Part shown: positions 11,472-52,629 of the stretch, piece after piece
How the letters are laid out: every line of letters begins with the position of its first letter
Position numbering within the stretch: position 1 is the stretch's first letter
Assembly: GCA_964594965.1 (NCBI GenBank)
Contig: CAZQMX010000001.1
Coordinates: 25,667 to 89,666 of the forward strand
Source: an uncultured Candidatus Saccharibacteria bacterium
Lineage (GTDB): Bacteria; Patescibacteriota; Minisyncoccia; Portnoybacterales; UBA2143
Direction: 5' to 3'
Length of the DNA: 64,000 nt
Made by a program: the position numbers and the translations under genes
The notes under the pieces: generated by a model
The model's database searches: none
Told to the model about the DNA's origin: nothing
The model's input: the letters and a program-made list of their open reading frames with translations, nothing else

Positions 11472-12605
11472 ATGAGAAGAAATAACAAAAAAGTAGTTGT
11501 TGGATTATCAGGCGGAGTTGATTCCTCCGTCTCTTTATTATGCCTCAAAAAACAAGGGTATGAGCCAATCGGGGTTTCTTTTAAATATGATCTCTGGAAA
11601 AACAAAAAAAACAAACTTAAAGAGAATATCTGCTGTTCTGAAAAATCATTTGCCATTGCCAGAGAAATTTGTCAGAAATTAGATGTTCAATATCATATTA
11701 TTGACGATACGATTGATTTCAAAGATAAAGTCATTGGCTATTTTCTCAAAACCCTAAAAGATAAAAAAACGCCCAATCCTTGTTTAATTTGCAATCGCTT
11801 TGTTAAATTTGATAAATTAATTAAGTTTGCTCATAAAATGGATGTCCAATATATTGCCACTGGCCATTATGCTCGGGTAAAAAAACAAGGCAATTCATAT
11901 CAACTTTTGAAAGCAAAAGACAAAACCAAAGACCAAAGTTACTTTTTAGCCCTTTTGGGACAAAAAGAATTATCAAGAATAATTTTTCCTTTAGGGAATT
12001 ATACTAAAAAGCAAGTTTATCAAATTGCCAAAAAACAAGGTTTTGATGCTTTTGAAAAAACCAAACAGAGTCAGGATTTATGCTTTGTTGCCTCCCAATC
12101 AATCCCATTCTTTTTAGAAGAGAAACTTGGATTAGAGCCGGGGAAAATAGTTGATATTGATAACAATATTTTAGGCGAACACAAGGGTTTATATTTTTAT
12201 ACTATTGGCCAGAGAAAAGGATTAAATCTTTCAGGTGGCCCTTGGTATGTAATTGGCTTTGATAAAATCAAAAATTATCTTATAATAACTAATAAGGAAA
12301 AAGATCCAAATCTTTACAAAAAAGAAATTATTCTTTCTGATTTCAGTTTTGTTTCTGGTCAAATACCAAAGGAAGAAATTAAAGTTAAAGCCAAGACCAG
12401 ATTTAGCCAGAAGCCGGCTTTGGCTAAAATTTATCCTCCTAAAAAGAAAAAATTAAAATTAATTTTTGAGAAATCTCAAAAAGCAATTACCCCCGGCCAA
12501 TGGGCAGTTTTTTATAAAGGCGATGTCTGTCTCGGCGGAGGAATAATATTATCGGAGGTTCGACCTCCGATAGTAAAGTCGGAGGTTCGACCTCCGAAAG
12601 TCTAA
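11472..12605 (+). CDS. mnmA: tRNA-specific 2-thiouridylase MnmA
   Basis: PP-loop SGGVDSS with catalytic cysteines. The C-terminal 18 aa (SEVRPPIVKSEVRPPKV) are encoded by two copies of the 17-nt palindrome. Confidence 0.8.
   Translation: MRRNNKKVVVGLSGGVDSSVSLLCLKKQGYEPIGVSFKYDLWKNKKNKLKENICCSEKSFAIAREICQKLDVQYHIIDDTIDFKDKVIGYFLKTLKDKKTPNPCLICNRFVKFDKLIKFAHKMDVQYIATGHYARVKKQGNSYQLLKAKDKTKDQSYFLALLGQKELSRIIFPLGNYTKKQVYQIAKKQGFDAFEKTKQSQDLCFVASQSIPFFLEEKLGLEPGKIVDIDNNILGEHKGLYFYTIGQRKGLNLSGGPWYVIGFDKIKNYLIITNKEKDPNLYKKEIILSDFSFVSGQIPKEEIKVKAKTRFSQKPALAKIYPPKKKKLKLIFEKSQKAITPGQWAVFYKGDVCLGGGIILSEVRPPIVKSEVRPPKV
12553..12596 (+). repeat. two tandem copies of the 17-nt palindrome CGGAGGTTCGACCTCCG
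   Basis: Exact copies at 12553-12569 and 12580-12596. The same 17-mer occurs at 36234 and, on the other strand, at 51870. Confidence 0.8.
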
Positions 12606-19038: not shown

Positions 19039-19119
19039 CTGGGAGTTCGGGTGGGTTCGCCCTGTCATCCGACAGGGCGCCCCGTCGAATGACGGGGCGA
19101 ATCCTCCCACTGGCTCCAG

Positions 19120-19201: not shown

Positions 19202-19267
19202 CGCGTTTTTTATCCAAAACTTGTTTTGGGTATAAAAAAGAGCGTCCCGTCGGATGACGGGACTCAC

Positions 19268-36230: not shown

Positions 36231-36233
36231 TTT

Positions 36234-36260
36234 CGGAGGTTCGACCTCCGATTTTTTTTA
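36234..36260 (+). terminator. 17-nt palindrome CGGAGGTTCGACCTCCG followed by T8, an intrinsic terminator after lgt
   Basis: 7-bp GC stem with a 3-nt loop, then TTTTTTTT. Confidence 0.6.
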
Positions 36261-51190: not shown

Positions 51191-51264
51191 GCGCCGTTAG
51201 CTCAGTCCGGTAGAGCAACTCCCTTTTAAGGAGATGGTCGGGGGTTCGAATCCCTCACGGCGTA
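51191..51264 (+). tRNA. tRNA-Lys (anticodon TTT)
   Basis: Acceptor GCGCCGT/ACGGCGT, D arm GCTC/GAGC, anticodon stem CTCC/GGAG with loop CTTTTAA, T loop TTCGAAT. Confidence 0.8.
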
Positions 51265-51349
51265 CTGAAATTTATTACGGGTTCGCCCTGTCATCCGACG
51301 GGGCGCCCTATCGGATGATAGGGCGATTCCCTCTACCCCTACCATGATA

Positions 51350-51392
51350 AAAACCCGCTTGTCTGTTTTTCCAGACAGGCGGGTTTTTGTAT
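51350..51392 (+). terminator. strong rho-independent terminator
   Basis: CCCGCTTGTCTG-tttttc-CAGACAGGCGGG followed by TTTTTG. Confidence 0.6.
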
Positions 51393-51444
51393 TCTCTCAA
51401 TGGTGTTTATTCATCTTATTTATGCTAAAATATTGGATAAGAAA

Positions 51445-52347
51445 ATGCATCACATAGCGATAATGAGAAAATCCTGGGGTCTCTTGCCCAAGATTTTAAC
51501 CAAAGAAAAGACAATTGAATCACGCTGGTATATGAATAAATATTCCCCCTGGGACAGAATTAAAAAAGGGGATATTGTCTATTTTAAAAACTCTGGCGAG
51601 CCGATCAGCGTTAAAACAGAAGTTTCAAAGATTATTCAGTATTCAGATTTAACATCAGTTAAAGTTAAACAAATTCTTGAAGAATATGGCGCTAAAGATG
51701 GTTTGGGCATTAATGAAATTGACAAATATTATCAGATGTTTAAAGATAAAAAGTATTGTTTATTAATTTTTCTTAAAAATCCGCAGAAAATTAAATCTTT
51801 TGATATAGACAAAACCGGATTTGGAGCCATGGCGGCCTGGATAACAGTTGATAATATAAAAAGAATTATCGGAGGTCGAACCTCCGACAGTCCCAATATG
51901 ACTAATTTAATGACAAAAGAACAATTTAATAAGAAAAAGAAGGAACTGGATAAATTAAAGAAAGAATATGAGAAATTGGGTAAAAAGATTTCTGGAGAAG
52001 CCAAAGACAGCGGTTCTTTTCTTCATAATATCCCAGGCTATGTTGGATTAATGGATAGAATGGAAGCCCTCTCTTTAAAGATTGCTCAGTTAGAAAAAGA
52101 ATTGGACTCTGTTCAAATGATTAGCCCGAAGGAGATTCCTTCTGGTGTTGTCTCGGTTTTATCCTGTGTTTTGGTTTTAGATATTCTGAAAAACAAAAAA
52201 GAGAAATATTGTTTCGGGGAAAATATTAGCCAGGATTCCTTAATTGGCAAAGCGCTGATTAATAAGAAGGTTGGGGATAGAGTAAAAGTTAAAACCCCAA
52301 AAGGCGAAAGGGAATTGGAGATACTGGAAATAGAAGTTATGGCTTGA
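51445..52347 (+). CDS. fusion protein: N-terminal ASCH domain plus GreA/GreB-like coiled-coil and C-terminal FKBP-like domain
   Basis: ASCH motif LTKEKTIESRW...GD. GreA-like C-terminal domain SPKEIPSGVVS...IGKALINKKVGDRVKV. The 17-nt palindrome (51870-51886) lies in-frame at the junction. Start chosen after a TATGCTAAAAT element. Confidence 0.45.
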   Translation: MHHIAIMRKSWGLLPKILTKEKTIESRWYMNKYSPWDRIKKGDIVYFKNSGEPISVKTEVSKIIQYSDLTSVKVKQILEEYGAKDGLGINEIDKYYQMFKDKKYCLLIFLKNPQKIKSFDIDKTGFGAMAAWITVDNIKRIIGGRTSDSPNMTNLMTKEQFNKKKKELDKLKKEYEKLGKKISGEAKDSGSFLHNIPGYVGLMDRMEALSLKIAQLEKELDSVQMISPKEIPSGVVSVLSCVLVLDILKNKKEKYCFGENISQDSLIGKALINKKVGDRVKVKTPKGERELEILEIEVMA

Positions 52348-52380: not shown

Positions 52381-52629
52381 ATGACAGATAAAGATGTTCA
52401 AAAAATTATAGAAGCTAATAAAGCGGTCTTTTATGATAAACAGGAAATGGACTCAAAGTTTAATGATTTGAGGGGTGATTTCAATAAACTTCAATCTTCT
52501 GTTGACAGATTGGCCGGAAATATTGCGGATTATGTTCAGGAAATGAAGATGCTTGGCAGTAAGATTGATCGACATGAAAAATGGATACAGCAACTTGCCC
52601 AAAAACTAGGAGTTAGTTTGGATTATTAA
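52381..52629 (+). CDS. hypothetical small coiled-coil protein
   Basis: ORF only. Confidence 0.2.
   Translation: MTDKDVQKIIEANKAVFYDKQEMDSKFNDLRGDFNKLQSSVDRLAGNIADYVQEMKMLGSKIDRHEKWIQQLAQKLGVSLDY

Follow-up and report, generated by a model that had tools for sequence, protein, structure and literature searches.

A likely deletion-derived, lineage-specific fusion of ASCH-like and Gre-like genes at an intercistronic palindrome

Background

The transcription factors GreA and GreB (E. coli structures 1GRJ and 2P4V) combine an N-terminal antiparallel coiled coil with a C-terminal globular domain in about 150 residues. [quoted passage not shown] The fold is shared by the non-cleaving, inhibitory Gre homologues Gfh1 of Thermus and Rv3788 of M. 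tuberculosis, which have conserved acidic tip residues (PMC4598747). A related C-terminal domain is found in Rnk, the regulator of nucleoside diphosphate kinase (PDB 3BMB), a secondary-channel binder with no known role in cleavage and a much shorter coiled coil (PMC4598747). In the long GreA proteins (NCBIfam NF011309/PRK14720, a 906-position model) the Gre module is C-terminal in a longer polypeptide, which shows that Gre can accommodate extra sequence at its N-terminus.

Stand-alone ASCH proteins, such as ZmASCH (5GUQ), YqfB (9KYF), TthASCH (2DP9) and the subgroup with a 'GKER' octapeptide, are PUA-like beta-barrels of about 140 residues. Their conserved octapeptide has the form GxKxx[E/T/S]xR, and TthASCH, EOLA1 and TRIP4 require its Lys and Glu to deacetylate ac4C (bioRxiv 10.64898/2026.02.27.708502). 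At the level of DNA, REP-type intergenic palindromes and the Rickettsia palindromic elements (RPE) are short, GC-rich, multicopy palindromes located at gene boundaries, and RPE lying inside open reading frames (ORFs) can be read through, thereby adding residues to proteins. RPE are about 100-150 bp long, and REP are imperfect palindromes of 20-40 nt.

Here we describe an ORF in which an ASCH-like and a Gre-like domain are joined at a palindrome of this general kind. It lies in a 64-kb window, i.e. the whole stretch of 64,000 nucleotides that was analysed. We conclude that it is very probably a lineage-specific, in-frame gene fusion made by a deletion. The fusion is real but looks like the accident of one lineage rather than a conserved new type of protein, and there is no evidence of selection for a joint ASCH-Gre function. 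A literature search on the ASCH domain together with GreA found no such fusion.

Results and discussion

Domain composition of the fused protein

The ORF and its features are listed in Table 1. A longer ORF call from an ATG at 51400 was rejected, since homologues all begin at the MHH/MxH-IAIM position that corresponds to 51445. AF2 models were built from an alignment of ASCH sequences only (A4) and from one of ASCH sequences with four close Gre orthologues (A6); a third alignment, in which the full protein was combined with both ASCH and canonical GreA sequences (A3), was discarded because it placed the GreA sequences on the ASCH half. Both domains of the fused protein are modelled with high confidence (pLDDT 91.4), whereas the linker is of low confidence and modelled as disordered (block means of 62 for residues 141-150 and 75 for residues 151-160); together with a pTM of 0.59 this fits two independent domains. 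No further gene for Gre or ASCH occurs in the window.

Table 1. Features of the ASCH-Gre locus, in window coordinates
Feature	Position	Strand	Basis or remark
tRNA-Lys(UUU), context	51191..51265	+	ARAGORN, Rfam
Intrinsic-terminator-like hairpin and T-run, 3' of the tRNA and its two hairpins	51357..51392	+	
Upstream region of the ASCH gene, about 90% conserved relative to L006	51399..51444	+	blastn, alignment
Fused ORF, 300 aa and stop	51445..52347	+	open, continuous
ASCH/PUA-like beta-barrel domain, aa 1-141	51445..51867	+	Pfam, AF2, Foldseek, alignments
Linker, aa 142-151 (IGGRTSDSPN), 30 nt, former intergenic spacer	51868..51897	+	stop-free in frame
Perfect palindrome TCGGAGGTCGAACCTCCGA, 19 nt	51869..51887	+	8-bp stem, 3-nt loop
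Gre leader CAGTCCCAAT, 10 nt	51888..51897	+	L006 copy identical
Complete Gre-factor-like moiety, aa 152-300	51898..52347	+	from the ancestral start codon
Gre N-terminal antiparallel coiled coil, helices aa 158-188 and 199-222	51916..52110	+	AF2, Pfam GreA_GreB_N
Coiled-coil tip loop SGSFLHNIPG, aa 189-198	52009..52038	+	alignment, model
Gre C-terminal globular domain; compared with canonical GreA, 9 residues are deleted	52123..52338	+	Pfam, alignment, AF2

The first-pass annotation of this DNA, made from the sequence alone, had assigned an ASCH domain to the N-terminus and had suggested structure prediction of both halves, which indeed recovers the ASCH and Gre folds. The model of residues 1-151 (pLDDT 93.6) retrieves ZmASCH (5GUQ/5GUS/5Y6B) as the top eight Foldseek matches in the PDB (E 7e-8 to 8e-7, TM 0.62-0.70), with YqfB and other ASCH/DUF984 entries next in rank. 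The Pfam ASCH match (PF04266) is weak (E 0.003-0.012; 16.8-18.8 bits, below the gathering score of 21.2), a profile-to-PDB search reached PH0355 and PF0455, both of ASCH type, at no better than E 0.003-0.01, and identity to the solved ASCH structures is only 12-16%.

The octapeptide reads K20-E-K22-T-I-E25-S-R27. Its K22, E25 and R27 match the Lys, Glu and Arg of the stand-alone proteins, and the family alignments show no variation at K22 or E25 and almost none at R27. The first position is a Lys in place of the Gly that is found in all 46 of the more distant homologues compared; K20 is also present in the stand-alone close relatives P0247 and P0249 and is therefore a trait of this sub-lineage rather than a sign of decay after the fusion. 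We had initially read K20 and G33 of the Gre half as such decay, but the ratios of non-synonymous to synonymous substitution (dN/dS of 0.10 for the ASCH half and 0.21 for the Gre half) point instead to purifying selection, so that neither half is a decaying pseudogene. About 60 ASCH homologues stand alone and end 0-10 residues past the position equivalent to I141.

The same annotation had recognized a Gre C-terminal domain and a coiled coil, both of which are present; the C-terminal half is in fact a whole Gre factor and not only its C-terminal domain. Pfam GreA_GreB scores above its threshold (43.1 bits against 26.9), GreA_GreB_N falls just under its own (21.9 against 24.5), and the TIGR01462 match (E 1e-17; 64.6 bits against a cut-off of 139) covers profile positions 2-151 of 151. 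The Pfam C-terminal domain is the sole curated cut-off passed, the NF00126x equivalogs scoring 33-64 bits, far below cut-offs of 145-234. Foldseek matched full-length GreA, GreB and Gfh1, with TM to target of 0.64-0.72 for GreA/GreB and 0.75-0.77 for Gfh1 (3AOH/3AOI; E 2e-9 to 6e-9). Taken together, the Pfam matches, the profile coverage and the full-length structural matches establish that the Gre factor is complete. Hence the suggestion that the ASCH module replaces the Gre N-terminus has to be abandoned: the coiled-coil domain is intact, the alignment with GreA spans the entire N-terminal domain, and the ancestral ATG at 51898 yields exactly 149 residues, in line with the stand-alone orthologues, four further ones of which measure 145-155 residues. 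Compared with GreA/GreB, the fused protein thus bears a 151-residue N-terminal ASCH extension. NCBIfam NF004396 (Rnk) also matches the C-terminal domain (E 4e-8), but the helices of 31 and 24 residues are GreA-like and unlike the short coiled coil of Rnk. As regards the long GreA proteins, only the Gre part matches NF011309 (42.8 bits over profile positions 701-902, where the cut-off is 714), whose N-terminal part is unrelated to ASCH.

In alignments, the positions of E. coli GreA D41 and E44 are occupied by Ser and His here and by Ser and Ser/Asn/His in the orthologues. No acidic tip residue is conserved in five members of the clade or in two more distant representatives; as the stand-alone orthologues share the non-acidic tip, the change predates the fusion. 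The Gre half, which evolves fast, belongs to a small clade without the acidic tip. Judging from the fold, it may bind the RNAP secondary channel, and with both acidic tip residues missing its probable role is binding or competition, not the stimulation of transcript cleavage. By analogy, it is possibly a non-cleaving occupant of the channel like Gfh1 and Rv3788, from which it differs in that those factors have kept their acidic tip residues.

A 1,744-bp difference from a sister genome probably accounts for the junction

The origin of the ORF is best seen by comparison with the genome designated L006. It is identified as the sister of the window genome by identities of 93.6% for AspRS, 87.5% for the S11 peptidase and 90.8% for ASCH, the outgroup L009 standing at 80% and 69%. 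On one L006 contig the order is ASCH with its own stop (P0249, 148 residues, ending ...NIKRVKRNLFTV*), a 557-residue gene, a degenerate copy of the palindrome, the 10-nt leader and Gre (P0063, 149 residues). In blastn comparisons, window positions 51399-51868 correspond to L006 1758-2227 (90%) and window positions 51869-52338 to L006 3972-4441 (79.8%); therefore the 1,744 bp at L006 2228-3971 are absent from the window, and the 557-residue gene was not found elsewhere in the 64 kb. The deletion junction falls between 51868 and 51869, precisely where the palindrome begins on its left side. It reads ATT-a-TCGGAGGTCGAACCTCCGA-CAGTCCCAAT-ATG in the window and TAA-t-TCGGAGATTGAACTTCCGA-CAGTCCCAAT-ATG in L006, where a stop, of the sort that the first-pass annotation had proposed to look for in relatives, lies 5' of the palindrome copy. 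That copy forms no stable hairpin (z-score about 0), and we treat it as a decayed relic.

The state of the two genes in other orthologues, which had likewise been named as a check, is uniformly separate. Only in the window genome and L006 are ASCH and Gre close to each other; elsewhere in the family they are neither fused nor adjacent, and any other homologue of one or the other half either stands by itself or has a different fusion partner. Given one sister genome and this separate state elsewhere, parsimony favours deletion as the direction of the event, the insertion of 1,744 bp into an already fused ancestor being formally possible. The only fused sequences known are 100% identical copies of the window allele (an ENA/NCBI scaffold, a Logan assembly and a JGI metagenome contig), possibly from one or related samples.

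We propose that the common ancestor with L006 had three co-directional genes, encoding an ASCH protein of about 148 residues, a membrane-anchored protein of 557 residues and a Gre-like protein of 149 residues, the last preceded by the 19-nt intercistronic palindrome and the 10-nt leader. The window lineage would then have lost 1,744 bp comprising the last seven ASCH codons and the stop, the spacer and the whole 557-residue gene. With the right breakpoint at the left edge of the palindrome, the hairpin may have served as the end-point of the deletion, e.g. through slippage or recombination. The remaining palindrome and leader have no in-frame stop, and ribosomes translating ASCH would therefore continue into Gre. 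The expected product is the ASCH barrel, a flexible linker of about 10-15 residues and the full Gre-like factor, the two domains presumably folding and acting independently. If the Gre part docks in the secondary channel with its own N-terminus outside, the ASCH domain would be sterically tolerated and passively carried. A separate Gre protein could in addition be made from the internal ATG; a Shine-Dalgarno core precedes only 12 of the 55 window genes, so that the ribosome-binding site before this ATG is uninformative on internal initiation. For Gre, the branch leading to the window exceeds the L006 branch in length by a factor of about 1.8, which could reflect relaxed constraint or adaptation after the fusion.

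The palindrome is a dispersed intercistronic repeat

The first-pass annotation had correctly placed a 17-nt palindrome (CGGAGGTCGAACCTCCG, 51870-51886) in frame at the junction; the full perfect palindrome extends by one nucleotide on either side and encodes I142-G-G-R-T-S-D148. As RNA its hairpin has a predicted stability of about -14 kcal/mol, and the sequence is stop-free in all six frames. Three further exact copies are present in the window (at 12553, 12580 and 36234), making four in total against 0.04 expected by chance, and the element is multicopy in several low-GC Patescibacteria metagenome-assembled genomes. It is a dispersed repeat whose usual site is the short gap between co-directional genes, where 2-7 nt separate it from the preceding stop codon and 8-11 nt from the ATG that follows; the junction studied here has the same geometry minus the stop. 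As a multicopy, GC-rich palindrome between genes it qualifies as a REP-like intercistronic repeat and, like RPE, it can be read through and add residues to proteins: the MnmA ORF (11472-12605) has an 18-residue tail, past the end of its last Pfam domain, that is derived from two palindrome copies, and one ORF in L015 reads through a copy. It differs from REP and RPE in being only 19 nt long, identical across several Patescibacteria genomes, and strikingly regular in its distance of 8-11 nt to the start codon that follows.

Searches with Rfam returned no family at the palindrome or the junction, the sub-threshold matches reflecting only the terminator at 51349-51388. A metagenome-wide scan for hairpin arm, leader and ATG (CYTCCGACAGTCCCAATATG) gave only two chance matches on unrelated high-GC contigs and no new relatives. 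The palindrome was also considered as a plus-strand terminator inside the ORF and rejected, as no T-run follows it; a minus-strand 'terminator' call at the same place is a by-product of AAAAAG codons.

Alternative explanations

The junction might simply be a sequencing or assembly artefact, a one-nucleotide indel in the 30-nt spacer concealing a stop between genes that are really separate and overlapping. Simulated -1 or +1 shifts in the spacer do give an ASCH protein of 151 or 153 residues with a stop (TGA or TAA) overlapping the Gre ATG, which is a typical coupled-gene junction, and GC-rich hairpins can hamper sequencing. Even so, we regard an artefact as extremely unlikely, because three assemblies produced with different pipelines agree at 100% identity for 3.4-6.5 kb across the junction, homopolymers in the spacer never exceed three, and the spacer between the last ASCH codon and the ATG is, at 30 nt, as long as the stop-to-ATG spacer of L006. 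Also to be weighed is the earlier proposal that two genes became one when a mobile palindrome inserted in or across the stop codon of ASCH. That two genes were fused stands; the proposed cause does not. A repeat with several copies in 64 kb, open in every frame and elsewhere translated as C-terminal tails would be a plausible agent, but L006 has its degenerate copy followed by the same 10-nt leader before a stand-alone Gre gene, so that the palindrome is older than the fusion, and what sets the window apart is the missing 1,744 bp and not the presence of the palindrome. We therefore give insertion a very small chance.

A different question is whether the fusion, however made, has been selected as a bifunctional factor in which Gre docks and delivers an RNA-binding, RNase or deacetylase ASCH domain to the mouth of the secondary channel, to act on the extruded 3' ends of backtracked RNA and so offset the missing acidic tip. 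In its favour can be cited the two intact domains under purifying selection, a structural neighbour, ZmASCH, that is called a single-stranded RNA nuclease in the discussion of a preprint, the Gre tip without catalytic acidic residues, the external position of the Gre N-terminus (PMC4598747), the proximity of the ASCH and Gre genes in both sister genomes and the faster evolution of the Gre half on the fused branch. However, the architecture is a singleton, absent from the best 150 matches among 1.84e9 (1.84 billion) protein representatives; in L006 another gene separates the two; the partners of the ASCH subfamily elsewhere, by fusion or as neighbours, are nucleotide-metabolism and other enzymes (HAD, DUF402, GIY-YIG, GNAT-like, NUDIX) and never Gre; the non-acidic tip is common to stand-alone orthologues and older than the fusion; and the linker is plainly a co-opted untranslated spacer. 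Selection for such a factor is hence improbable in our view, and the original reading of the ORF as a transcription factor with an RNA-binding module finds no support, ASCH and Gre being unfused elsewhere.

Implications

The fusion by deletion offers a clean, datable case of a new multidomain protein arising in a reduced genome: one deletion ending at an intergenic hairpin turned a leftover spacer into a linker, and the split (ancestral) and fused (derived) states are kept in sister genomes. Should the fused protein prove active, it would show that a Gre-type factor tolerates an N-terminal cargo of 150 residues, and the protein would be a natural construct for probing the role of ASCH near RNA polymerase. 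For specialists two by-products may outweigh the fusion itself, namely a clade of Gre-like proteins whose coiled coil is full-length but has no acidic tip, and a 19-nt palindrome that several Patescibacteria genomes carry at a constant distance from start codons. One could go further and join the two, with a tipless Gre anchoring ASCH as a new secondary-channel factor and the palindrome as a genome-wide device or selfish element that makes fusions. We hold out little hope for this joint reading; were it true, an RNA-processing or deacetylating ASCH domain would be held at the mouth of the secondary channel by a Gre scaffold, and the palindrome, lying 8-11 nt before start codons and open in six frames, would remodel gene ends in candidate-phyla-radiation bacteria.

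Transcriptional context

The terminator-like hairpin and T-run downstream of the tRNA imply that the fused gene needs its own promoter. An extended -10-like box, TGcTAAAAT, can be read at 51423-51431 in the conserved region upstream of ASCH and is a candidate for this promoter. In L012, which is more distantly related, a stand-alone Gre gene follows 8 nt after this same tRNA-Lys(UUU).

Domain composition of the fused protein

The open reading frame joins two domains that are otherwise found in separate proteins. An alternative ATG at 51400, called by one pipeline, would yield 315 aa; we place the start at 51445 because the MxH-IAIM motif opens every homologue. For residues 1-141 the match to the Pfam ASCH profile is sub-threshold (16.8-18.8 bits versus 21.2). 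An AlphaFold model of residues 1-151 (pLDDT 93.6), confident up to residue ~141 and disordered thereafter, recovered ZmASCH as best PDB neighbor (E 7e-8, TM 0.65-0.70), followed by the ac4C amidohydrolase YqfB, other ASCH/DUF984 entries and PUA-like domains, which bears out the first-pass annotation of an N-terminal ASCH domain. About 60 homologues of this half were recovered, mostly stand-alone and 165-200 aa as called, with several calls carrying spurious N-terminal extensions across tRNA genes. Where source names are given, they point to Patescibacteria/Parcubacteria MAGs; the label 'ASC-1-like (ASCH) protein' is used by some sources. The stand-alone proteins terminate 0-10 residues beyond the position of I141. 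The ASCH octapeptide of the fused protein retains the catalytic Lys, Glu and Arg; it has an unusual Lys at the Gly position of the motif, which is shared by stand-alone relatives and is therefore no consequence of the fusion.

Residues 152-300 align with positions 2-151 of the 151 of TIGR01462 (E 1e-17), with the Pfam Gre C-terminal domain above threshold and the N-terminal one slightly below it. The modeled structure, with helices at 158-188 and 199-222 followed by a beta-rich domain, matches GreA, GreB and Gfh1 across 153-158 alignment columns. The predicted C-terminal Gre domain is thus part of a complete Gre factor, and the proposal that the ASCH module replaces the Gre N-terminus fails, as that N-terminus is intact. 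The closest relatives are stand-alone proteins of 149, 149, 145 and 155 aa (73-59% identity), matching in length the part of the fused protein from M152 onward, which identifies ATG 51898 as the start codon of the ancestral Gre gene. The full-length AlphaFold model (pLDDT 91.4, pTM 0.59) shows two confidently folded domains and a predicted disordered linker of 10-15 residues, which derives from the former spacer.

Features of the fused gene, the sister locus (L006) and related proteins
Feature	Source	Coordinates or members	Strand	Remarks
Fused ORF	window	51445-52347	+	uninterrupted, 300 aa
Gre-like clade without acidic tip	window; other genomes	51898-52347; P0063-P0066, P0110, P0196, P0234		tip about G-S/A-F/V-x-x-x-x-P-G/E-Y/F; full-length coiled coil
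Junction palindrome TCGGAGGTCGAACCTCCGA	window	51869-51887		19-nt perfect inverted repeat
Further exact palindrome copies	window	12552-12570, 12579-12597, 36233-36251
Second hairpin family	window	19058-19079, 19078-19099, 19244-19263, 51284-51305, 51304-51325
MnmA gene	window	11472-12605
ORF 3' of fused gene	window	52381-52629		82 aa, coiled-coil-like
HIT-family gene	window; L006	52743-53234; 4533-5018
Reverse-transcriptase gene (RVT_1)	L006	255-1322	-
GC-rich stretch	L006	1340-1700		apparently structured, non-coding
ASCH gene	L006	1804-2250		own stop
Membrane-anchored ORF	L006	2297-3970		557 aa
Region after 557-aa ORF	L006			TAA, t, degenerate palindrome copy TCGGAGATTGAACTTCCGA, leader CAGTCCCAAT, Gre ATG
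ASCH-fusion proteins	other genomes	P0018, P0026, P0031, P0043, P0045, P0052, P0105, P0122, P0183

Origin of the fusion

Two stand-alone ASCH proteins fall into the same 90%-identity cluster as the fused protein. One stand-alone ASCH protein, P0249 (148 aa), is encoded on the same 72-kb contig (locus L006) as the closest Gre orthologue, P0063, so that orthologues of each half occur on their own, with the ASCH gene ending at its own stop before a separate Gre gene. Sequence identities (AspRS 93.6%, S11 peptidase 87.5%, ASCH 90.8%; about 80% and 69% for the next relative, L009) indicate that the two genomes are sisters. In blastn comparisons, window 51399-51868 corresponds to L006 1758-2227 (90%) and window 51869-52338 to L006 3972-4441 (79.8%). 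As these blocks are collinear, L006 2228-3971 (1,744 bp) is exactly missing from the window. This segment comprises the final seven codons of ASCH plus the stop, 46 nt of spacer and the entire 557-aa gene. The junction coincides with the palindrome's left edge. The remaining 30-nt spacer is a multiple of three and has no stop in the fusion frame; the other two frames have stops overlapping the Gre start, and a simulated single-base indel in the spacer gives two overlapping genes again.

An assembler-specific error is unlikely, since the ENA/NCBI scaffold, a Logan assembly from SRR8062331 and a contig of a JGI metagenome agree at 100% identity over 3.4-6.5 kb spanning the fusion, although these may represent non-independent samples. 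The first-pass annotation had also envisaged two genes fused by insertion of the palindrome. That two genes were fused holds, and the palindrome is real, coding for most of IGGRTSD; its insertion as the cause does not hold, because a degenerate copy already precedes Gre in L006 and the deletion junction lies at its edge. The palindrome was rather already resident as an intercistronic element upstream of Gre, and marks the end-point of the deletion. It is absent before Gre in the more distant relatives L009, L011 and L012; in L012 a tRNA-Lys lies 8 nt upstream of the Gre start. Outside this gene, members of the two families are always separate, which makes a 1,744-bp deletion in the window's lineage the most parsimonious reading; insertion of the 1,744 bp into an already fused ancestor is the less parsimonious one.

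Immediately upstream of the L006 ASCH gene lie the reverse-transcriptase gene and the GC-rich stretch, where the window has a tRNA-Lys; the two may be parts of a retroelement (for example a DGR, retron or group II intron). L006 lacks a counterpart of the 82-aa ORF 3' of the fused gene, and the HIT-family genes, which lie at the same position, are just 19.5% identical, as against 93.6% for the flanking aspS. Gene turnover is thus concentrated locally around the Gre gene.

Functional implications of the two halves

The window protein and its stand-alone Gre orthologues form a small clade with the coiled-coil tip SGSF....PGY in place of GDLKENAEY, and alignment of its members shows the loss of both acidic tip residues, which act at the active center in Gre factors (PMC4598747). 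The clade is thereby distinct from every known kind of secondary-channel factor: in the tip from GreA/B, Gfh1 and Rv3788, all of which have acidic tips, and in its full-length coiled coil from Rnk, in which it is short. The C-terminal domain of the window protein and the closest members is short of nine residues. [quoted passage not shown] No canonical GreA was found within the 64-kb window. The Gre part of the fused protein probably docks on RNA polymerase such that its N-terminus stays outside the channel and the ASCH cargo would be tolerated; Gre proteins with a long N-terminal extension do exist (NCBIfam NF011309).

Elsewhere, ASCH genes of this subfamily adjoin unrelated genes (a cold-shock gene, ParE, NUDIX or NTPase; at L036, an ASCH locus, NUDIX and NTPase genes surround it) or sit directly 3' of tRNAs. 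Pfam identifies fusions to HAD, GIY-YIG, DUF402 and DUF1653, and reading of the sequences suggests fusions to a GNAT-like N-terminal domain and apparent SLOG-type domains. These associations suggest enzymes that act on nucleosides or nucleotides, not a part in transcription, and hint at a role in modified-nucleotide metabolism, which fits the ac4C amidohydrolase activity of ASCH proteins reported in recent work (bioRxiv 10.64898/2026.02.27.708502).

Both halves are under purifying selection (dN/dS 0.10 for ASCH, 0.21 for Gre). Between the sister genomes, dN of the Gre-like gene is 3-5 times that of neighboring genes, and its window branch is about 1.8 times the L006 branch in a simple three-taxon calculation from identities. 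The fused polypeptide is presumably made, with the two activities probably independent of each other; a separate Gre protein may also be initiated internally at ATG 51898. Among 1.84 billion representative proteins searched, none of the best 150 hits matched both halves. We thus see no evidence for ASCH-Gre as a selected architecture; this new combination is restricted to a single lineage and most likely arose by accident.

The palindrome and other elements

The three further exact palindrome copies in the window compare with 0.04 expected by chance. In these and in loci L014-L030 the dispersed form is TCGGAGGT(CGA/TCG)ACCTCCGA, and several Patescibacteria MAGs of low GC content carry this 19-mer in multiple copies. 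The palindrome typically occupies the gap between co-directional genes, 2-7 nt after the upstream stop and 8-11 nt before the next ATG. It is free of stop codons in all six frames, and some copies are translated, the stop of the upstream gene then lying just 3' of the copy. In MnmA, a tRNA 2-thiouridylase, Pfam domains extend no further than residue 359 of 377, the final 18 residues (SEVRPPIVKSEVRPPKV) are encoded by two tandem copies set in a 27-nt repeat, and the following gene begins 8 nt past the second. Another copy lies 3' of lgt and is followed by a T-run. The palindrome has no match in Rfam; a terminator or mRNA stabilizer, a translation-coupling element and selfish DNA are candidate functions. 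L018 (Patescibacteria MAG H43-bin147_1) and L019 (MAG CAYHOD01) are identical in the 45 nt compared on either side of the palindrome. MAG CAYHOD01, of 27-30% GC and with at least 9 palindrome copies, carries the label 'uncultured Gammaproteobacteria', which is probably wrong.

A second GC-rich hairpin family (CGCCCYRTC-4 nt-GAYRGGGCG), with no matching Rfam family, occurs often as tandem pairs directly 3' of tRNA genes (Thr, Tyr, Lys). A Shine-Dalgarno core is seen at -20 to -4 in just 12 of the 55 long window ORFs, and many genes have a TATAAT-like box 5-12 nt upstream of the ATG (e.g. 36301, 3458, 10649, 13918, 45820), suggesting leaderless or very short-leader mRNAs.
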